Below are positions 4,707-48,736 of a DNA stretch of 64,000 nucleotides, one piece after another. Source of the DNA: an uncultured virus (IMG/VR IMGVR_UViG_2718218029_000001). Taxonomy: Duplodnaviria > Heunggongvirae > Uroviricota > Caudoviricetes. A program made the position numbers and the translations under genes. The stretch is from the IMG/VR virus record IMGVR_UViG_2718218029_000001, positions 1-64,000 of that record, one strand, 5' to 3'. The notes beneath the pieces are model-generated. The model saw nothing but the letters and a program-made list of their open reading frames with translations. It ran no database searches and was not told the DNA's origin. Every line of letters starts with the position of its first letter. The stretch's first letter is position 1.

Positions 4707-5059
4707 CTATGCAAATTGGTGGACGATCTGATTGATCTAAAAATTGTGTTGAATATAAAGATTCATGCGAGGTGGCTAAAATGGGCCCACCGTTGGTATT
4801 TTAAGTTGCACTAAGAGACGATAAACGGGACTTTTAATGAATGGAAGCAAGCTCCCAGGACCTAGCTCACAGTTTGCACCAAAGGCCTTGTTATCAATTG
4901 AGAAGAGCACACTGTACGGTTCATGATCAAAAAATATTTTGATTATGTCTACTAGTTTTTACCTTTGTTTTAGTACAAAAAAACGTGCGTCCCCTAGAAC
5001 TATTAGAAAGTTAATTTAAAATAGTCGAAGGATAATTAAAGGCATGCTATAATGCGGGG

Positions 5060-5182
5060 AAGAAAAAGAAGCCCTGCGTGAACGGAGCTTCTCAGACAAG
5101 CCGCTTTAAAGGCGGTGGTCTAGATTACAAAATACATTGTCGCCTTGTAACCGACCAAAGTTACGCAGGGCGGGTTTTTATT
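5060..5182 (+). ncRNA. Putative type I antitoxin RNA (locus 1)
   Basis: TGcTATAAT at 5045-5053; converges on a holin-like toxin ORF; ends in a hairpin plus U-tract; homologous to the loci at 14.4-14.6 kb and 20.0-20.1 kb. Confidence 0.6.
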
Positions 5183-5267
5183 TGTGGTGCTTGTCGATAT
5201 AGCTGAGGAGTGCGATTAAAAACGGGCCAAACAGCAATATCAACGAGCGTGTCTGGAAGGCGCTCAT
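5178..5267 (-). CDS. Putative holin-like type I toxin, 29 aa (MSAFQTRSLILLFGPFLIALLSYIDKHHK), possibly attenuated
   Basis: Hand-translated; GGAAGG SD; near-identical to 19888-19977 but with R and P substitutions in the hydrophobic helix. Confidence 0.7.
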   Translation of the reverse strand: MSAFQTRSLILLFGPFLIALLSYIDKHHK

Positions 5268-5324
5268 TGGCTGTTAAACCTTCCTGAAGATTATTCCATG
5301 TTCACATGGCCTCAACTAGCAGGG

Positions 5325-6042
5325 GATCAGACTGTCATTTATTAAAAAGTGCAGCGACTTTTTCGAAATACGATTTATCTAATAGATGCTCATTATGTTT
5401 CATCTTTTACACCTGTTTCCATTTGGAATTCAGATAAGAAATCATGCATATACTTTGTTCGACGACTGGCTTCTTGCTTTCCCGTTCTGGTATTCATTGA
5501 ACTTGCTAATTTCAGCAGCTTTTCATAAAAGTGATTGATGGTTGTACTTTTGTGATGGCGATAATCATCGTGTGTTTTGATTTTCTTCACTGATATTTTG
5601 GAATCATATATTTCCTGTCCAGCGTGCCCGCCGTAAGCAAATGCACGTGCTATGCCGATTGCACCTAGTGCATCAAGTCTATCAGCGTCCTGAACACATT
5701 TACCTTCGTTAGAAAGCTGATAATGGTGTTCAATGTTGTCAGCATATGACATATGTTGGATAATATCTAAAATGTCTTCTCTAGCCGGAGTTGTAATATT
5801 CTCATGGCTAAGTATAATTCGTACTCCTCTCAGTCTATTCTTTTTATCTGCAGTGACTTTTTAGTCTATGGTGTCATGCAAATAGCTAGCTGCTTTCACA
5901 ACATACAGACCAATATCAGTTTCATTTTTTTTAAAATCTTCTATATATTTTTTTTGAGCTAGCTTAGACACTCTTTGGGCATGAAGAAAATCATGCCCAG
6001 TTGGATCAAAGGCCATATTTTCTTTAGAAAATGATTTTATAT
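5325..6042 (-). pseudogene. Truncated, frameshifted duplicate of the HD phosphohydrolase gene plus the 5' end of the SAH-hydrolase-like gene
   Basis: Near-identical reverse complement of ~16140-16860; start codon missing; frameshifted. Confidence 0.85.
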
Positions 6043-14092: not shown

Positions 14093-14343
14093 GCACTCTG
14101 ATAAAATGAATCAATTACCGTATTTTTATGCTCAATGTTCTTACTAAGATGACTTACGTTAATACACTAATCCAGGTTAGAATGAAGTACACTACTGATT
14201 TAAAAATATGTTTCTAAAAGAATTATATCTCTGTATAATGAATCAAGTAGAGAAGTTAAGGCGGTGGCTATTTCCGATCGGAGGCGGTGCTTATGGTGTT
14301 AAACCTTTAAAGCCCATAAATCCTAACGAAAGGAGTAGCCTAA

Positions 14344-14448
14344 GTGTCCGTTTCGGACGCTTTACAATTAATGCTAGCTTTCGGTACATTTATCGTGGCC
14401 TTGATTGCATTAATTGTTGAGCTGATCAAAAGTCAGCAAAAAAAATAA
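14344..14448 (+). CDS. Putative holin-like type I toxin, 34 aa (MSVSDALQLMLAFGTFIVALIALIVELIKSQQKK)
   Basis: GTG start after AAAGGAG; single TM helix with basic tail; convergent antisense promoter. Confidence 0.75.
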   Translation: MSVSDALQLMLAFGTFIVALIALIVELIKSQQKK

Positions 14449-14561
14449 TCCGTCTTAGCTTTTGGCAGGGCTAACGGATTATTTAATCTATTATTAAACT
14501 TTGCCACCGTCTTAAACGGCTCTACATGGGAAGCCCTGTTCTAGCGGGGCTTCCTTTTTCT
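14440..14561 (-). ncRNA. Putative type I antitoxin RNA (locus 2)
   Basis: Minus-strand TGcTATAAT (-10 at 14568-14573); bidirectional terminator at ~14445-14485; homologous to the other two loci. Confidence 0.6.
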
Positions 14562-14672
14562 GTTTACATTATAGCATGGCTATAACGGACTTGCGACTAT
14601 TTTAAGTGTAGTTTCTCAAAGGCTAGAGAAACTATTGTTCGTTCTTGAAAATATGTAGGAGCAACGGCCTAA

Positions 14673-19977: not shown

Positions 19978-20100
19978 AAAAGCCGCCCTGCGTAACTTTG
20001 GCCAGTTACAGGGTAGCTTAATGCTGTCTTATTAACTTCGCCACCGCCTTTGAAGCGGCTTGCGTGGGAAGTCCTGTTTTCGGCGGGGCTTCCTTTTTCT
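19972..20100 (-). ncRNA. Putative type I antitoxin RNA (locus 3)
   Basis: Minus-strand TGcTATAAT (-10 at 20107-20112); overlaps the 3' end of the toxin transcript. Confidence 0.6.
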
Positions 20101-20132
20101 GTCTCCATTATAGCATGTCCCTTAAAAACTGG

Positions 20133-20730
20133 CTAACGTTTTAGGCTTTGATCAGGTTCAGAATCTGGTTGTTTAATTTCTGGATTCTGTTTAGCAAATG
20201 CTTTCAGTTGTTTTTGAGTTCGATCACTAATTTCTTGGTGCACATCGTTTAACTGATTTTTTAATTGCGCTTTTTGTTGTGGACTAGTTGTTTGTTGAAT
20301 TTGTTGTTGCAAGCCTTGATAGGACTTATTCAGTGACTGGGCTGCTAGCTTTTTTAAATCGTGCTCAGGTCCTTCTTGTGCTTCTTGCAAGCCTAATTAT
20401 TTGGTTAAGCCATCGCTAAGCTCAATCACTTTGTTGCTAACTTGCTGGATTTCACTTAAAGCACTATGGATCACAGCTGTATCTTTAGCCCAGGTAGCCA
20501 CATAACCGAGTGAATAGTTACTGGTATCAACGCCAATATTTTGCATGGCAACATATGCGACCGCTTCGGCCTGGGTTTCCTGATAGGCTCGTGGCCGATC
20601 TTTAAAGGCTGATTTTAAGCCGTGTAGCTGGCTATGCGCATATTCATGATATAACGTCTTCAATTTTAAAGCATTATCGGATTCATCACCACCAATAACA
20701 ATTTCATTAGTGCTGGGTTGAAAATACCCT
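20133..20730 (-). pseudogene. C-terminal remnant of an LtrC/ArdC-like metallopeptidase-domain protein
   Basis: LYHEYAH..ETQAEAVAY..YSLGYV; in-frame stop at 20397-20399; 5' part deleted. Confidence 0.7.
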
Positions 20731-21430
20731 TAAAACCAGGTCATAGACTTGTTGCTGTAATTTAGGCAAGCTGGCTAGTTTCTCTTTCGTCGGCACGACT
20801 TTAGTCATAATAATGGCGTAGTGTTCTTCAACCTTCTTTCCATTAACATAGCGCTTATTCGGGGCGATATTGGTTAAAGCGACTGGCTTAGAGACTAACC
20901 CCAGATACTTAGGCAGATTAGCCCCTAAATAATCAAATTCTTCATCAGTGATATAAGCACAATCGGTGCGGGGATAACTGAGCAGTTTGTCTTCGTATAA
21001 ACTCTGAATGGCCGCCAAAGTCTGGCTGGCACTGGCATGATAACGTTTATTCATGGCACTCTGGAGACTGGATAGTGAGAATAGTTGGGGACTAGCACGC
21101 TTTTTAGCCTGGTTTTGAATGCCCTTGATTAAACCAGCCTGTGAGCCTTTCTGAACGTGTTTAGCTTGCATGAATGCCATTAGCCCTGTTTCGTCTTTAA
21201 ATCGCTGATAGGGGCCTAATTTTGCGACGAATTCTTGCTAATTAGCAAGAATTTCAGCATTTAGTTCAAAATAGGGTTTCGGATTAAAGGTTTTGTTTAC
21301 CTGGTCTCTTTGATAGACCATACACAAGGCTGGCAGCTATACGTAACTAATCGAGCATACCAAATTTTTCTCAATATAAAATACATTATGGGCTACCATT
21401 CATACCAATTAACCAGTCGCTAATTTTGTG
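20707..21430 (-). pseudogene. Internal fragment of a conjugative type IA topoisomerase (TopB-like)
   Basis: PQLFSLSSLQ, LYE.KLLSYPRTD, EHYAII motifs; truncated at both ends. Confidence 0.8.
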
Positions 21431-25967: not shown

Positions 25968-26474
25968 CTAATAACTAGGCCGATCGTTTTTATTTTCAGA
26001 ATTGTTTTTTGGCTTAATTTCTGGATTGTTTTTAGCAAAGTCTTTTAACTGTTTTTGAATTCTTTGTGTAAGCTCTGCTTTATTTTCTTTGTGCTTCCTT
26101 TTACTTGATCGCTGTTGAATTATCTTTTGATCCTTACCTCTTCTTTTTGATTTTAGGGCAAGCGTAAAATCTGAAATTTTATTTTGATCTAGCTTACTTA
26201 AATGACCGATTTCTTTAAAGTTTAAACCGGCTTTGGGAAAGCGATAAATATTACCAAGATCGACCCAGGAAGGTTTCTTCAACCCAGCGGATTGCCAATC
26301 TTGAATCGGATAATATTGTTGCTTGATATAAGCCGACTTCTTTTCATACTGACTAGTAATTTTAAAAGCCTCGACCGTCTGTTCTGATACCCGACGAATT
26401 AAAACTGGCCGAGACTTGCCACCGTTAGTTTCTACAAAACTAACGTATAGGCTGACTAAGTCATTAGTCCTCAT
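25968..26474 (-). CDS. PemK/MazF-like toxin with an extended basic C-terminal tail
   Basis: VSFVETNGGKSRPVLI..KITS..AGLKKPSWVD fold signature; overlaps the antitoxin gene. Confidence 0.7.
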   Translation of the reverse strand: MRTNDLVSLYVSFVETNGGKSRPVLIRRVSEQTVEAFKITSQYEKKSAYIKQQYYPIQDWQSAGLKKPSWVDLGNIYRFPKAGLNFKEIGHLSKLDQNKISDFTLALKSKRRGKDQKIIQQRSSKRKHKENKAELTQRIQKQLKDFAKNNPEIKPKNNSENKNDRPSY

Positions 26475-26745
26475 CTAGATCATTGAGCCAATCAGCGACT
26501 TCTTTGGCGTCTTTGAACTCTGTTACTGGTGTCCCTTCGGTCGCCTTTAAAAAGCGTAAATTAGCTTTTTCTTCTTCGCTTAAAGACGCATTAAAAGGTA
26601 AAGCACCATTAGCAACAATCCGCTTGTAAAACATGTTAATGGCCGTGGTTGGATTTAAGCCCAATTCGCTTAAAACTGCTTCGGTATCATCGGCCAAATC
26701 TTTATCAATCTTGACTTGGACCCGTTTTTTTTCCTTAACTGCCAT
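26464..26745 (-). CDS. RelB/DinJ-family antitoxin
   Basis: RHH N-terminus VQVKID..LGLNPTTAINMFYKRIV..ALPF. Confidence 0.88.
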   Translation of the reverse strand: MAVKEKKRVQVKIDKDLADDTEAVLSELGLNPTTAINMFYKRIVANGALPFNASLSEEEKANLRFLKATEGTPVTEFKDAKEVADWLNDLDED

Positions 26746-27412
26746 GATTGTCTCATCCCCTTTCTTTTGCTACTACCATTATACTACCTTTTAAGTACCT
26801 TATCAATAGATAAAGCCCTGGCCTCAAATCACTTGAGCTTGGCGTTGAGCTAAAGGCTGAACTTTTGAGCTGGTTAGCTCTGGCACTCATTTAAAAGCCC
26901 CTATTCTTCTGTTTAAGACATTTAAATCTAACTTAAGTATAAAGGGGGAGGTCGGCAAGCCTTAAAACTGCTTAGAAAGGATTTTGTAGCCTTTTAGGAT
27001 TAGTAGTACAACCCACTGTTGTCGTTGTCGGCCGGCTTTTCTTCTTCGGGGTGTTTGGCCACGTATTCTCTAGCCGCTTGTTTATTCCACCAAACAGCAA
27101 ATAGTACGACACCAAAAACTAAGCAGTATTCATCATGTTACAGCACCCAAGTAAAAGCTACAAAGATAAAAACATTCATCCTCAAAATATGTAACCTAGA
27201 AAAAAGGCCTCCAGTGTTAAACCGGGAGCCTTTTTTAGTATACCAATTTCTACTTCACACAAGGCGGCTTATCCCAAGTAACCTCATCACGCCCTGGCAC
27301 TTCCACATTCCGTTATTTTATCTTTGTGAACTTGCCCAAAAAAGAAGTGGTATAGGTTACAGATTGGCCTTAATTGGGGAAAATGAGTTTGTGAAATTCA
27401 CTGGGATTACTC

Positions 27413-27745
27413 CTAGACCATTCCCTTAAATTCAACTGTCTCATTCTTTGTATTAACCAAAAACTTACCAACACTCCCCTGATACTTCACGGATACTTTA
27501 AAAGAATACTTGTAATTTACCCGAGTATATCGAATACTACTAATTCTCCCCTGATACCCTTGCTTACGCAAAACTCTTTTTACTTGATCTCTCTGCTGAT
27601 TTGTAATTCTTGCAGAACTCCGATAGATTGTCTTCTTAACGATCACATCTGGATTCAATGGAACAATGTAATCCTTACATTCCAACAATTCCACCAACTT
27701 TCTTTTTTTCTTTGGAATTTGACTTGACGGGTTACGGTTTTCCAT
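27413..27745 (-). CDS. Hypothetical basic protein downstream of the structured RNA locus
   Basis: 110-aa K/R-rich ORF; no recognised motif; start overlaps the predicted RNA 3' helix. Confidence 0.4.
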   Translation of the reverse strand: MENRNPSSQIPKKKRKLVELLECKDYIVPLNPDVIVKKTIYRSSARITNQQRDQVKRVLRKQGYQGRISSIRYTRVNYKYSFKVSVKYQGSVGKFLVNTKNETVEFKGMV

Positions 27746-28385
27746 TCAGTTTAGAGGGAGTGACGTTTTGAGCGCAGAATTGTTCCCTGGAATCAGCTAT
27801 TTGGAATAACTGAACCAGAGTACAATTCTACTACTAAAAGTTTCCCCTTAGTTCGTCGGTCGTTAACGCCCGTCGCTTGTCTGTACAATTGCGGTATTGC
27901 TACCACCACTCATTATAAACCTACGTTTTCGGTTTAACCTACTAAAAAACGCCCTAGTAGGCGTTGGCAATACGTATTTATGTTTGTTCGATCACCAACT
28001 AATCAGTGGCACCAAGCCGAAGCTTCGTTTTACCACCCGCGCCGTTAATGGTCGCGCTCACCATTCACCACCCAGCCGTACAGATGACCTTGTTGTGGTA
28101 TAGCCAGACTTATTGAAGTCGCACTGGCAAACGTGTCCCCTTGGATTTAGACCCCAGCTTGTCCCCTAGGGCTTTAAAAATCGCACCGGCCATGATATAA
28201 TAGTCAGTAAATGAGTTGACTTTTGTGTGGCGCTCACCGATGCCAGTCGGTGGGTGTTTTTTTTTATGCAGTTTTTTAGGTATTACTTCTTTTGAACTAC
28301 TGACAGTGTCCCCCATGATTCACAGTTAGTACAGCAAACGGTGGAAATAATGTTAAAAACACATCATATAATAGGACTGTCAATA
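27720..28385 (-). ncRNA. Putative large structured replication-associated RNA (copy A)
   Basis: TTGACA (28416-28421)-18-TATAAT (28392-28397) promoter; GC-enriched and stem-rich; motif-level homology and covariation with 38224-38925. Confidence 0.6.
28208..28265 (+). ncRNA. Putative counter-transcribed antisense RNA (ctRNA A)
   Basis: TGaTATAAT at 28193-28201; terminator cgctcaccga..tcggtgggtg plus T9. Confidence 0.65.
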
Positions 28386-28434
28386 TCAATGATTATAGCC
28401 CTTTCATAGGATATCTGTCAACAATTATATTTAA

Positions 28435-28645
28435 TTTCCCTTTTTCCCTTTATCTATTTATCCCTAAATAGAATTATCCCTAAATAGAAATATCCCTAAA
28501 TCCCTTTTTCTATTTAGGGATATTTTTAATTCCCATTATAACAGTGTTCTCAGTCGATAAGTATCCCTTTTTCCCTTTATCCCAATTTCTATATATCCTT
28601 AATTCTATATATCTAAATAACTATTTAGGGAAATTTCCCTTTCAC
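28435..28645. repeat. Centromere-like (parS) repeats upstream of parA
   Basis: Multiple direct and inverted TATCCCTAAATAG / TTCCCTTT units. Confidence 0.7.
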
Positions 28646-28692
28646 TATTAAATTGTGGTATACTAATTAAAAATCAATTGGAGGTCGTTGTT

Positions 28693-29553
28693 ATGGATAT
28701 TCCAGACGTAGTAAAGGCTATACAGTCTCGTGATGAGGCATTAACCATTGTGATTGGTAATCAAAAGGGTGGCGTGGGAAAAACAACTAACACGTATCTC
28801 ATCGCTTATACCTTAGCTAAAATGGGAATACATACGTTGGTTGCAGACTTAGACCCACAAGCCAACGCCACTAAAACACTAATGTTAACGAAAAGTCAGC
28901 AGGAAGATACCGTGTACTCAATTAAAAAAACTCTGATGGTAGGCGTACAGGAGAAAGATCTAACAGACTTACCAGTTAAGATAATGGATAACCTTGACCT
29001 AATTCCTTCATATATTGATTTCCAAGATTTCACGAAATATTTATATCAGAATACGAATAATGAGTACGAAGAAACACATCTGTTGGAGCCCTTGTTTAAT
29101 CCATTGAAGAAGAAATATGATGTAATTCTGTTGGATGTGCCACCATTTAGTATTGAGATTACCCGTAATGCTGTTATCTTCTCAGACTTTGCACTTATCA
29201 GCTTGCAAACACACGATGATAGTCTATCCGGTGCAGAAGAGTATGTGAATACCCTTTCTAAACTTCAGCAAGAGTATCAGCTAGATATAGAGGTAATTGG
29301 TATCTTGCCAATGCTTCACGATGCCCGTAACGGTGTCGATCAGACAATCATACAATCTGCTAAGGATGAGTTTGGAGAAGAAAATGTATTCACAAATATT
29401 GTTACTCAAATGGCCCGGATTAAACGATTCCCAATTAATGGAATTACCGATAAGGACCGCTTCGATAAGCGAGTGTTAGACAAGTACCAGCAAGTTACCG
29501 ATGAGTTATTAAGCCGGATTGGCTTATTTATAGATGATAAGGAGGCCAAGTAA
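28693..29553 (+). CDS. parA: ParA/Soj Walker-type partition ATPase
   Basis: NQKGGVGKTT, DLDPQANAT, LLDVPP motifs. Confidence 0.93.
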   Translation: MDIPDVVKAIQSRDEALTIVIGNQKGGVGKTTNTYLIAYTLAKMGIHTLVADLDPQANATKTLMLTKSQQEDTVYSIKKTLMVGVQEKDLTDLPVKIMDNLDLIPSYIDFQDFTKYLYQNTNNEYEETHLLEPLFNPLKKKYDVILLDVPPFSIEITRNAVIFSDFALISLQTHDDSLSGAEEYVNTLSKLQQEYQLDIEVIGILPMLHDARNGVDQTIIQSAKDEFGEENVFTNIVTQMARIKRFPINGITDKDRFDKRVLDKYQQVTDELLSRIGLFIDDKEAK

Positions 29554-37655: not shown

Positions 37656-37774
37656 ATTAATAAACAAATGCAAAGTTGCGGATCATTTCTGATTCGCAAT
37701 CTTTTTTATACTATATTAAATCTGTGCTGAAGCACGTGTGTCCCCCACCAATACCCATTATAAAGTTACTCAGT

Positions 37775-37775
37775 T
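37775..37775. other. Contig junction (N)
   Basis: Single N with an abrupt change of content. Confidence 0.85.
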
Positions 37776-38178
37776 NTACGAAAAAACCCTCAAAAGACAG
37801 CAATGATAGATATGTAATTGACGATAGTGTTGTCAATGCTATTCGTAAATACTATGCAAACAGTAACACCAAGGCTAAACAAGAAAAAGCGTCACCAATT
37901 GACGATAAAGTTCTTGATATAATGCGACGTCAACTAGACGAAAAGGATAGACAAATTGAAAAGCTAACTCAATTACTTAACCAGCAACAACAACTTAATT
38001 TGTCTACTAACCGTCAAAACGAAAAACTACTTGGTACCACTACGAACAACCCCCTCTCACAGGACGATATCCCCTTAAAAGCGACGATACAGACGTTTTA
38101 AAGCCTACCGAGGGTAATTATAAGGGAGTAGACACTAAGACGCCTAAAAGGGGCTTGTTTGGTTGGTTAAGACGTTAA
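37776..38178 (+). CDS. C-terminal part of a DUF536-like (OrfX-type) HTH/coiled-coil plasmid protein; N-terminus at 49307-49392
   Basis: LDIMRRQLDEKDRQIEKLTQLLNQQQQL; frameshifted tail ending KGLFGWLRR. Confidence 0.7.
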
Positions 38179-38223
38179 AAATACCCCTTTGTCATATTAT
38201 CGGCAAAGGGGTATAATACTGTT

Positions 38224-38925
38224 TGTAACTAGATTAAATAGACAAAAAAATTCCCTCGGAGCCTAAACCGGGGGAACACAATAACTTCATCAAGTTTATG
38301 TGTTCATTTTACCTACTATTGTAAGATTTTTCAAGTAGGTAGAGTTGAATTTTTCTGGATCACGGGGAGCCAAGCCTCGTTACTAGAGTGGCAACATTCT
38401 AGCCAAGCCAACTAATCTTACCTTTCGAGGACTGACAGCCGGTTAGCGGAGCTAATGAAACAAGTCGACAGGTCAAGTGAGAGCCGCCGCTATAAACTCC
38501 CACTAGGAATTAACCTATACTTGTATTTAGGTTGGTTCCGAACGGTGGCCCCACGCACGGGCGGGCCGGTAAAGCAGTACGAAAGTACAGGGCTATTACG
38601 CAAGGCCAGTGATCCAAACAACTAAAAATAAATGATTGCTGGCACCTATAAAGGGTGCTTTTTTTATAGGCTAAATTAGTTAGGCTAATCTACAAGCGCA
38701 ATAGTAACAATACAAGTGTTTTTACGTGACGGTGATTCGTGACGAACAACAAAAAGTTTTCTTCTTCGCAAAACAAGGGGAAAACTATATCCCGCTCAGG
38801 TTCAAGCGTTCTGAACAGCAAAGGGCAAGTGCACTAAACTGGTTTGACCTTGAGGGTTAAGAGCACGTGATTGCGTGCAGATAGGTTAGACTAGGGTGTT
38901 ATTAATGTACTAGCCGTCACGTAGA
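38224..38925 (+). ncRNA. Putative large structured replication-associated RNA (copy B)
   Basis: TTGTCA (38189-38194)-17-TATAAT (38212-38217); no long ORF; many helices, e.g. tacgtgacgg/ccgtcacgta; homologous to copy A. Confidence 0.65.
38244..38299 (-). ncRNA. Putative counter-transcribed antisense RNA (ctRNA B)
   Basis: TTGAAA (38329-38334)-17-TAAAAT (38306-38311); terminator hairpin 38251-38276 plus U7. Confidence 0.7.
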
Positions 38926-39281
38926 CCACAAGACGTTAAGAACTAACTACTAACGACAGACACACTATCAATATTATATAGTCTCGGCCAGGCGGTTTCT
39001 AAGCCGACATATTTCGGACAATTATAAATAGAACGTCCTATCACAAAGTAACTTACATACGTAGAATAATACAATTTCACAAGTGTAAAATAATGGATAT
39101 ATTAACATTTACAATTTACTCTATTTTCACAAAGTATCGTTATCGCATGATATTGGTAAATATATAGCCTTATATCGTTGATATAACAACGTTTTTAACA
39201 CTTCACAAAGTTTAGCTTTGAATACTAAGCGTTATGTTAACTAGCATAAAATAGTGCTATAATGAAAACTGACTCTAGTGG

Positions 39282-39740: not shown

Positions 39741-40002
39741 GTGCTAACAAGCAACCTAAGCAACTTTATACGCTAAAAGGTGTAAAAACTAGTTAAAAGC
39801 TGTCAATTCCTTATGCTCCCACGTTTTGCTCGTCCGCTACCATTGACAGCAAACAGTTAGTTTTTTTTGAATCTTAACAAGAATCTAACTGCTATATTCG
39901 TTTTTAAGGGCCTTATTTCTCGTTTCTAGTGATTTTGAGACTGTCTATATATAAATTTATACCAAAGCAAAAATAAAAAGCCCTTAGCAGGCTTTTAGAG
40001 GG

Positions 40003-41966: not shown

Positions 41967-42401
41967 CTAGCTTCTCAATGGCCCTTTGTGTTTTTGTATT
42001 TTCTTGGCCTGGTGCAATTTATATCTTTTTTCTTGATCCAAGATCTTCTTAGTACGTCTATTATGTTGTCGAGTTACTTTTTGACATTCCAACTGTTTTT
42101 GGAGTGTTTGTTGTGCTTTAGTACCGACACCATACTGAATACTCTTTCTAGCTAACCTTTGAAGACGCTTAGGATTGATTTTTCGTTCAGAAACAGACGA
42201 AGCACAAACAGTTTGTTTGAAAAAGATAATTCTATTCCAATGATGAATAACCAGATCGTAAATCAAAGTTAATTTAGGTTCTGAAGGACCTAAGTTAATT
42301 TGGCTAACTTCATAAGTGGAATTAAAGCGTCTTTCGAAAATAGCTTTGTAAAACGGTGGTTCATAGACAATTGTTAATGATCCCTTGATAGTAGACATCA
42401 A
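41967..42401 (-). CDS. yjdF: YjdF/DUF2992 family protein
   Basis: LTIVYEPPFY..FER, GPSEP, KINPKRLQR, GTKAQQ, KHKG motifs. Confidence 0.88.
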   Translation of the reverse strand: MMSTIKGSLTIVYEPPFYKAIFERRFNSTYEVSQINLGPSEPKLTLIYDLVIHHWNRIIFFKQTVCASSVSERKINPKRLQRLARKSIQYGVGTKAQQTLQKQLECQKVTRQHNRRTKKILDQEKRYKLHQAKKIQKHKGPLRS

Positions 42402-42424
42402 ACATCCTCCTTAAAATTAATTAA

Positions 42425-42503
42425 GAAAGATGGACAACCAAGGAGGCAGGTTACTGATAGCTTCGCTATGTTCGGACTACCAACCGAACTGTGTTTTTAC
42501 TTT
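42425..42503 (-). promoter_or_regulatory. yjdF RNA motif (azaaromatic riboswitch)
   Basis: Minus strand aaaacacagttcggttggtagtccg...tcagtaacctgcctccttggttgtcc, directly upstream of yjdF. Confidence 0.85.
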
Positions 42504-42594
42504 CTACTGCTAGTTTAACTCAAATACCCCATTCAGAATAGTTTGCTTAAAACTCTGAATGGAATATTTGGTAATTATAGTTCCTAAAGGTTTC

Positions 42595-46509: not shown

Positions 46510-47736
46510 GTGATCATCGACCTCGTTTTTTAAGCACTATTATATCACCTAACAAAAAAACAGCCCCCATTATCTACTAGTCAGATAATGGGGGCTGTTT
46601 TAATAGTCTTTTCGAGGGGTCATTGAGTGACTTATAGACCCTAATTTTAGAGGAAGCCTTAAAACTGAATGTAAAACATTTTGACTACTCAAAATCTTTA
46701 AGACACTAGCAACCAAAAATACCAATTAAAATAATCATATATTTAAGCTTTCAAGTTTATTTGGGTTATTGATAAGCAGCTAATTTTCTGCTTACACGTC
46801 TATACTCAGTAGGAGTTTGTTGAAATTTTTTTTTAAATTGTTTAATGAAATATGTGTCAAGAAAATCCTACTGCATAAGCTATTTCATTTAAGCTAATCC
46901 CAGTATGCGTCAGCAAATTTTTTGCAATTTTTAGCCTATATAAGAGAAGATATTGCATTGCCGTACACCCATACTTTTCTCTAAAGCACCTATTCAAGGT
47001 ATCACGGTTTGAAAATGAGTTGGCTGTCAGATCATTTAATGTAATCTGTTGAGAATAATTAGTATAAAATAATCTAAAGCTTTATTTAAAGGTAATTCAT
47101 TATCCGCTTTTATTAAATCATCTCTACTAGTGAAAGTAATACAATTAGGTTCTTCTTAATCCTGCAAACCCAAAGCCTATCACTTTGTACTAAAACTTCA
47201 CTTCCAGCTACAAAAAATTTTTCAATGATTTTCGGATAAACCTCAGAAGTCAGTTTGTATGCTCCGCTTTTTTTTCTTACATTATCTCGTTTGAAAAGTT
47301 GCATTCCAACTTTGATACTGGAATTTTGGGATTTCACATAGTGTTTATCAGAAATTCTTAAAGTACGTAAAAAATCTTCGTCAAATTGAATAGTTGGTGC
47401 TACAACGTTTGCTTTTGGCTAACTAATAATTGGTCTTGATTCGTCAGACATAGAAGATAAGGAGCTTTAATTCGGATAGGGATTCCGTTAATGCACCAGA
47501 GAAAGCACCTGAGGTTATTAAGGTAAGCGTGTATTTATTTTTATGTGTCAGGTCTTTAAGACACTGTTAGGTATAAAATCAATTGACGATTCTATCTTTA
47601 AAATGATCCTTTTGTGACATGATTAGGCCTCCTATTTTCAAATAGTATAGTTAATATCTTCTTATTATGCATTATACTGCATTGTTTTTCGAGCTATACT
47701 TTTTGTGTAATGAAAATGAATAAGGGGGTATTCTCT

Positions 47737-48736
<1,000 letters not shown>

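Follow-up and report, generated by a model that had tools for sequence, protein, structure and literature searches.

The window analysed here is the whole 64,000-nucleotide stretch of DNA recorded in IMG/VR as an uncultured virus (IMGVR_UViG_2718218029_000001). It carries two forms of a non-coding module, copy A on the minus strand and copy B on the plus strand, which we examine as candidate plasmid replicons. The first 35 kb of the window, including copy A, resembles large Lactiplantibacillus plantarum plasmids. Copy A has a 110-amino-acid (aa) open reading frame (ORF) and a RelB-type toxin–antitoxin pair on one side, and a repeat region and a divergent parA gene on the other. Copy B lies just 3' of a DUF536 ORF, and the window around it resembles small plasmids of 5–8 kb. 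We refer to relatives of the two copies as A-type and B-type, and compare both with the origin of the Lactiplantibacillus plantarum plasmid p256 (NC_006278.1; its coordinates are given under the handle L008). The parts of the two copies are as follows.

27713-28421, minus strand: whole module of copy A
28392..28421, minus strand: sense promoter of copy A, TTGACA-18-TATAAT, outside the family-conserved block
28173..28266, plus strand: antisense RNA gene of copy A (promoter 28173-28201; terminator 28229-28258 and T-run)
28145..28265, minus strand: 5' domain of the copy A sense RNA, defined from alignments (antisense RNA target and a hairpin with loop GGGACAAG)
27943..28144, minus strand: 3' structured domain of the copy A sense RNA, with six helices
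27942..27965, minus strand: intrinsic terminator of the copy A sense RNA (27965-27948 in the signal scan)
27713..27936, minus strand: conserved downstream region of copy A, candidate origin DNA
38150-38880, plus strand: whole module of copy B, the positional equal of the 688-bp p256 replicon (L008 5560-6247)
38189..38217, plus strand: sense promoter of copy B, TTGTCA-17-TATAAT, inside a 13-bp inverted repeat (38181-38214)
38244..38334, minus strand: antisense RNA gene of copy B (promoter TTGAAA-17-TAAAAT at 38334-38306; predicted transcript ~38299-38244, 55 nt)
38460..38666, plus strand: 3' structured domain of the copy B sense RNA (218.9 bits with the covariance model)

As judged from these signals, both copies share one layout, in which a sense promoter, an antisense RNA of 55–57 nt with its own promoter and terminator, and a structured sense RNA leading to an intrinsic terminator are followed by ~220 nt of conserved downstream sequence. 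An earlier note on copy A had listed most of these elements, and a signal scan located all of them where it had placed them. The minus-strand promoter that it called consensus matches at 12 of 12 positions (28421-28392). The ~55-nt antisense RNA that it described has both its signals, and in copy A is predicted to span ~28208-28266 (~57 nt) from a TTTAAA-17-TATAAT promoter with 10 of 12 consensus positions and an upstream TG. The motifs that it considered shared do occur in the same order in copy A (minus strand) and copy B (plus strand), namely GGTAAA and a hairpin; GTGATC..AACAA..AAATA..ATTGC; a dual-pairing element; GTA-RCAA-TAC; GACGG; GACGAAC; AAGGGGAAA; CTAAACTG; and CCGTCA. The span that it gave the module, starting from the promoter at 28421, stands only in part, as the family-conserved block begins at 28265 and the sequence upstream varies between relatives.

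The sense RNA has a predicted length of ~330–440 nt and stops at its intrinsic terminator (38641-38659 and a T-run in copy B), ~220 nt short of the end of the conserved block. In copy A this downstream region contains the motifs GTAGCAATAC, GACGG, GACGAAC, AAGGGGAAA, CTAAACTG and CCGTCAAGTCAA. It shows no clear strand-specific RNA structure, which fits a role at the DNA level. The inverted repeat of copy B encloses both the -35 and -10 boxes, its arms and the promoter are conserved among B-type relatives, and it may be an operator for the adjacent helix-turn-helix (HTH)/DUF536 protein. No small ORF inside the module is kept in frame across subfamilies, and for this reason the 56-aa candidate of the B-type and the 68-aa candidates of the A-type were rejected as coding.

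The homology of copies A and B extends through the entire module. Plain BLAST, with copy A as the query and the window as the target, misses copy B, and profile and covariance models were needed to detect the relationship. A covariance model bears it out: R1, built from 18 B-type sequences only (205 positions, 50 pairs), matches copy A over its full length at 27943-28144 on the minus strand (70.6 bits, E = 1.2e-25). R1 also matches the plasmid NZ_CP032361.1 (L001) and all 18 other A-type loci with 60–75 bits, and has no match in four tested chance loci. An nhmmer profile of the 18 B-type downstream segments finds copy A at E = 4.8e-14. Of the 19 A-type sequences it matches 18, missing L009, and it matches none of 95 shuffled controls. 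The two sets of matches together place the homology between an A-run at 28265 and ~27713 in copy A. The conserved block starts with that A-run (28265-28257), in agreement with the block recovered by plasmid BLAST (27718-28263).

Relatives were gathered from plasmid BLAST matches and one pattern scan of viral contigs. Five of 37 pattern-scan loci (L026, L028, L031, L033 and L043) were dropped on inspection as chance matches in AT-rich DNA. The family set comprises 40 oriented members in ~16 clusters at 93% identity, and all 40 align as one superfamily. In PLSDB the module is present in 432 records with copy A as the query and in 304 with copy B (some of them partial matches only), almost all of them Lactobacillaceae plasmids; the B-type is typical of small non-mobilizable plasmids of 5–8 kb. 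An antisense promoter and terminator are found in 35 of the 38 assessable loci, always with a 17-nt promoter spacer, and the antisense terminator stems covary across the family. The predicted antisense RNA measures 52–59 nt in 31 of these 35 loci and 93–102 nt in the other four, where the strict rule takes a farther T-run. The three loci without an antisense call share with two of those four a subtype whose T-run is interrupted. A sense promoter-like site lies at most 200 nt upstream of the core in 36/38 loci, at a varying distance.

Comparison among relatives reveals a conserved fold in the sense RNA. The fold was analysed on the B-type alone, with the A-type tested through the resulting model, because a mixed alignment is out of register; RNAalifold applied to the mixed A+B MAFFT alignment (A3) gave a poor structure, which was discarded, since several helices do not coincide between the types. 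The consensus from alignment A4 (18 B-type sequences) has 119 pairs in 21 helices. Tested on the very alignment from which it was derived, it has 93.8% of cells paired versus 83.9% in shuffles, and 49 of 119 pairs doubly changed versus 33.2 +/- 2.9, with none of 500 shuffles reaching the observed value. The covariation score is 0.355, compared with 0.184 for shuffled alignments and 0.05–0.09 for slid partners. Pairing cells contain 327 G-U against 34 A-C combinations, an excess indicating that the structure belongs to the sense strand. When placed on the B-derived model, to which their alignment had been fitted beforehand, 19 A-type sequences have 92.0% of cells paired (30–55% in slid controls) and 13 of 50 pairs doubly changed (against 3.5 +/- 1.4). 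The copy A 3' domain comprises six helices, in which two hairpins and a helix preceding GGGUGGUAAA are joined by the GGUAAA hairpin, a further hairpin whose loop is A-rich, and the terminator. The comparison with Rfam that the earlier note had proposed returned no plasmid-RNA family on either copy (Rfam 15, at the gathering threshold and at E up to 10). The RNA of copies A and B is a structured RNA family absent from Rfam.

The 3' strand of the sense terminator takes part in three mutually exclusive pairings. It can pair with its own 5' strand; together with the U-run it can pair with sequence just downstream (helix 21, the dual-pairing element of the earlier note, TAGTAGG in copy A); and it can pair with an invariant GGU-AAARCR motif ~90 nt upstream, which in copy A joins GGU-AAAACG to CGUUUU. 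The pairing between AAARCR and the terminator covaries in all 40 members, as AAAACG/GGCGU in 26, AAAGCA/GGUGC in 11 and AAAGCG/GGCGC in three. A set of three exclusive and conserved alternatives of this kind marks a regulated RNA.

No Rep-family Pfam domain was found among the 70 window ORFs of at least 90 aa, and the interval between parA and the toxin–antitoxin pair contains no Rep-sized ORF, as the earlier note had observed. Its caveat that a Rep gene might lie upstream of the window falls away on comparison with a complete plasmid. Positions 27150-28450 are 99.9% identical to NZ_CP032361.1, a circular plasmid of 48,575 bp whose 42 annotated genes include no Rep and whose other ORFs of at least 70 aa are all annotated non-Rep genes. 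Similarly, none of the 40 stop-to-stop frames of at least 55 aa in a 5,301-bp B-type plasmid and p256 belongs to a Rep family. Among the non-coding DNA of this 5.3-kb plasmid, the module is the main conserved block; it is accompanied by an integrase gene, a toxin–antitoxin pair, a DUF536 gene and a 119-aa ORF. Rep_3 or pUCL287-type theta replicons combine RepA and iterons with RepB/DUF536; here neither module contains an iteron array and no Rep_3 domain was found, and of these features there is only the DUF536 ORF beside copy B.

A functional precedent is provided by p256. PMC8346141 states that p256 and the nearly identical pTC7 have no replication-protein gene, and PMC3526553 describes pCD256dEc, a 1,690-bp plasmid that consists of the p256 minimal origin and cat only and replicates in L. 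plantarum. According to PMC8756648, the origin functions in L. plantarum and Pediococcus, and the primers in supplement file 3 of that paper bound the replicon to 688 bp (L008 5560-6247). Passages in PMC3526553, PMC3948729, PMC9934402 and PMC8346141 agree that ~0.7 kb is enough, that copy number is low (2–5) and that host range is narrow. On either side of this slot, the flanks of copy B are homologous to those of p256 (38104-38180 with L008 5514-5590, 77%; 38841-39050 with L008 6207-6422, 83%). Within its slot, p256 has a strong promoter on the antisense strand (11/12), just as copies A and B carry an antisense promoter, together with an antisense terminator and a sense terminator recognized by eye; unlike copies A and B, it lacks the GGUAAA domain. 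Copy A has neither flank in common with p256 and shows no significant match to it.

R1 has no match inside L008 5560-6247; of copy B, only the flanks match the p256 replicon. The sole R1 match in p256 (17.6 bits) is a ~45-nt remnant at 4844-4994, outside the replicon. A p256 DUF536/HTH gene at L008 5021-5585, also outside the 688-bp replicon, is split over two frames. These remnants (4844-4994 and 5021-5585) are traces of an older B-type module whose place the present core has taken. The p256-type core is represented by 49 records. A segment of ~100 nt in the p256 replicon (L008 5930-6031) has 77–85% identity to segments of small plasmids from Latilactobacillus, Levilactobacillus, Limosilactobacillus and others, and this similarity may mark a further related replicon family. 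The primer p256miniori_for has no match in the window; its exact matches in L005-L007 were set aside as chance occurrences in unrelated metagenome-assembled genomes.

On this evidence, the module represented by copy A is likely to be the replication region of its plasmid. We give an even chance to the more specific proposal that RNA priming or origin activation, controlled by the antisense RNA, is its mode of action. The explanation as a whole, which takes copies A and B as the replication modules of a Lactobacillaceae theta-plasmid family encoding no initiator protein and adds the mechanism set out below, is likewise, in our judgement, about equally likely to be right or wrong. A bolder version we advance tentatively, as somewhat short of evenly balanced: the modules would form a widespread, initiator-free, RNA-only family of Gram-positive theta replicons in which a ~400-nt RNA nucleates downstream initiation via the covarying GGU-AAARCR / YGY-UUU switch at its terminator, gated by a 55-nt antisense RNA, in a manner like that of ColE1 but having arisen independently and with a different RNA architecture.

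In the mechanism that we envisage, the promoter would drive a sense RNA of ~330–440 nt whose multi-helix fold is conserved and whose initial part would be complementary to a constitutive antisense RNA of 52–59 nt. The sense RNA would then reach the intrinsic terminator with its three exclusive pairings, beyond which lie ~220 nt of conserved DNA. Host enzymes would begin DNA synthesis in or beside this downstream region, using or needing the sense transcript; this could serve as a primer or R-loop or else, by read-through, open the origin. By binding the 5' domain, the antisense RNA would alter the fate of the sense RNA, changing its fold or the balance of termination and read-through, and this action would set copy number and incompatibility. 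In the B-type, the neighbouring HTH/DUF536 protein may add a second level of control, as suggested by the palindrome that covers the sense promoter.

Several observations weigh against this interpretation. The p256 core (L008 5590-6207, 620 nt) has no homology to copy A or B by BLAST or covariance model, and the functional link is therefore one of position, flanks and architecture, not of sequence; the published replication experiments concern the p256 module, none of them an A-type or B-type module. PLSDB assigns NZ_CP032361.1 the MOB-suite type rep_cluster_1465, the basis of which is not visible. In pRC18 a 168-aa DUF536 protein was named replicase RepB' from a 3.47-kb clone in which its necessity was untested (PMC7117683). 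To these points can be added the reuse of alignments in the fold tests above. The earlier note called copy A stem-rich, and only the comparison with relatives bears this out: taken alone, the sequence has no significant folding energy, and its z-scores of -1.6 (sense strand) and -1.4 (opposite strand) are unexceptional. RNA-seq contigs from two studies (27477-28278 and 27263-28276) stand apart as separate contigs with 3–6x the depth of the flanks, a weak hint in favour of a replicon. As contigs they give no readable RNA ends, strand or level, and their upper boundary (~28250-28284) coincides with the start of the conserved core, not with the consensus promoter. Finally, a good intrinsic terminator precedes the conserved downstream DNA and does not fit a simple run-on primer. 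The earlier note had read the locus as a Rep-less replicon with a primer or replication RNA under antisense control. The lack of Rep, the conserved sense and antisense RNAs and the ability of the analogous p256 module to replicate alone support the first part of that reading, whereas simple ColE1-style priming does not follow directly from the anatomy, because the sense RNA ends ~220 nt before the conserved block does.

ColE1-type plasmids (class B theta) use an RNA II preprimer and an antisense RNA, RNA I. Copies A and B resemble them in several respects. No plasmid-encoded initiator is apparent in the window, the 48.5-kb relative, the 5.3-kb B-type plasmid or p256. A long, structured sense RNA with alternative folds runs towards the presumed origin, and its 5' part is complementary to a short antisense RNA, known here from its signals (35 of 38 loci, with a sense promoter in 36 of 38). 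They differ from ColE1 in their Gram-positive hosts, in the length of the antisense RNA (55 nt versus ~108 nt) and in the intrinsic terminator that the sense RNA meets; moreover, they have no sequence or structure match to RNA I, RNA II or other curated plasmid copy-control RNAs in Rfam 15 at E up to 10. A Gram-positive theta origin without a plasmid Rep, located between divergent genes, was reportedly described by Meijer et al. in 1995 as oriV of pLS20 from Bacillus subtilis.

Countertranscript-driven attenuation operates in pT181 and in the inc18 plasmids pIP501 and pAMbeta1, where the attenuated leaders precede the rep gene. These are also Gram-positive plasmids with a small antisense RNA directed against a leader and a terminator with competing pairings, and a repressor acting on the sense promoter may be a further control that the B-type shares with them. 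In copies A and B, by contrast, no rep gene and no conserved ORF follows the terminator, and the antisense target lies 200–330 nt from the terminator, with independently folded helices between the two.

We consider unlikely, though the strongest of the alternatives, the following one: the module would be the replication region, but initiation would depend on a protein that binds the conserved downstream DNA, supplied either by the host or, as a small protein like the DUF536/HTH one, by the plasmid, with the RNAs regulating through attenuation or transcriptional origin activation, as in inc18 and pAMbeta1, and not priming. The terminator alternatives are typical of attenuators, and the downstream 220 nt are conserved yet have no strand-specific RNA fold. 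A DUF536 gene lies just upstream of B-type modules, with an operator-like palindrome on the sense promoter, and it is such a protein that the pRC18 paper terms RepB' (PMC7117683). The p256 replicon, however, leaves out the DUF536 gene, of which p256 retains only a broken remnant; A-type plasmids have no DUF536 gene, the module lacks iterons, and the pRC18 study, which cloned 3.47 kb, made no test of the need for the protein (PMC7117683). We regard the DUF536 ORF upstream of copy B as a candidate accessory regulator, not as a demonstrated initiator.

Improbable, in our assessment, is the possibility that the module is not a replicon at all but a structured non-coding RNA with its antisense RNA serving some other plasmid function, such as an RNA toxin–antitoxin-like stabilizer or the control of partition or incompatibility, while replication starts from an unrecognized origin elsewhere. 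It would accommodate the lack of homology between copies A and B and the p256 core, the discrete, terminated nature of the sense RNA and the presence of other plasmid RNAs in the window (RatA, rli28 and Bacillus-plasmid RNA). It sits poorly with the standing of the module as the main conserved non-coding block of a 5.3-kb plasmid, with its location in exactly the slot of the p256 replicon and, for the A-type, next to parS-parA, a usual place for a replicon, and with the lack of any conserved peptide ORF within it. Very improbable is the idea that the sense RNA serves only the downstream 110-aa ORF, as a leader regulated by countertranscript attenuation: that ORF does lie downstream in the same direction, with the terminator and its alternatives in between, and RNA contigs continue through it, but it follows the module in only three of 40 loci by tblastn (copy A, L044 and L050, the last two being the two ends of one contig), is absent from B-type modules and p256, and has neither a visible ribosome-binding site nor a family in a Pfam scan.

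The replication-region interpretation bears on vectors in use: the p256 replicon is the 256rep (miniori) of the pSIP and pCD256 vectors, a standard origin of Lactobacillus expression vectors. The literature searched contains no description of the mechanism of p256-type origins or of this RNA family, and Sorvig et al. 2005 (Microbiology 151:421) may already have put forward a mechanism based on RNA. This family gives a concrete model with testable base pairs for 256rep-like vector origins, and a handle on copy number and incompatibility in vector design. If RNA priming is true, initiator-free, RNA-driven theta replication would extend to Gram-positive plasmids.

The neighbouring genes and repeats of the two copies are as follows.

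28678..29553, plus strand: parA, divergent from copy A (Pfam AAA_31, CbiA and ParA; ParA family protein in the L001 annotation)
28414..28649: parS-like repeat region between copy A and parA
25968..26745, minus strand: toxin–antitoxin pair 3' of copy A, comprising a RelB antitoxin (Pfam RelB) and a 168-aa partner
27413..27745, minus strand: 110-aa ORF downstream of copy A, outside the conserved module
37676..38101, plus strand: DUF536 ORF upstream of copy B (Pfam DUF536; N at ~37777)

A self-BLAST of the parS-like region shows direct and inverted repeats at 28414-28514, 28550-28649 and 28466-28531. The toxin–antitoxin pair is annotated in L001 as a RelB/DinJ antitoxin and the mRNA interferase PemK. 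Family homology stops ~27 nt inside the 110-aa ORF.

Two further elements occur downstream of B-type modules. Bacillus-plasmid RNA (RF01691), a family named for Bacillus plasmids, is found at 39790-39850 on the minus strand, ~0.9 kb 3' of copy B, and also in three small B-type L. plantarum plasmids (L002 4878-4938, L003 4846-4906 and L004 2111-2171), with 69–73 bits; it was rejected as part of the minimal replicon type because p256 lacks it. Words resembling TCACAAAGT recur, together with a conserved segment CTTCACAAAGTTTAGCTTTGAATACT...ATGTTAACTAGC, at 39040-39240 in the window and at L008 6410-6530; they are located downstream of B-type modules, of p256 and of some parA-linked relatives (L009, L011 and L013).

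The window is composite between 35.5 and 64 kb. The large-plasmid part is followed by IS30-type fragments, by a p256-like small-plasmid segment with the DUF536 ORF, copy B, an integrase gene and MazE/PemK, and by phage genes (Gp157, helicase, primase, VRR-NUC, terminase and portal); the window may be a cointegrate or an assembly join. At 47710-48736 a glyceraldehyde-3-phosphate dehydrogenase gene appears as two ORFs, one for the N-terminal and one for the C-terminal domain, and is probably broken. A 157-aa ORF at 20707-21180 covers only positions 102-245 of a 411-position topoisomerase domain and is a gene fragment adjoining a MobQ relaxase gene. Rfam matches to RatA (88 and 50 bits) and rli28 (67 bits) at 14225-14571 and 20020-20110 adjoin genes annotated 'putative holin-like toxin' in the matching plasmid and are probably type I toxin–antitoxin loci. 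An azaaromatic (yjdF) riboswitch (87 bits) lies at 42414-42510 on the minus strand, upstream of a DUF2992 ORF (41967-42401).

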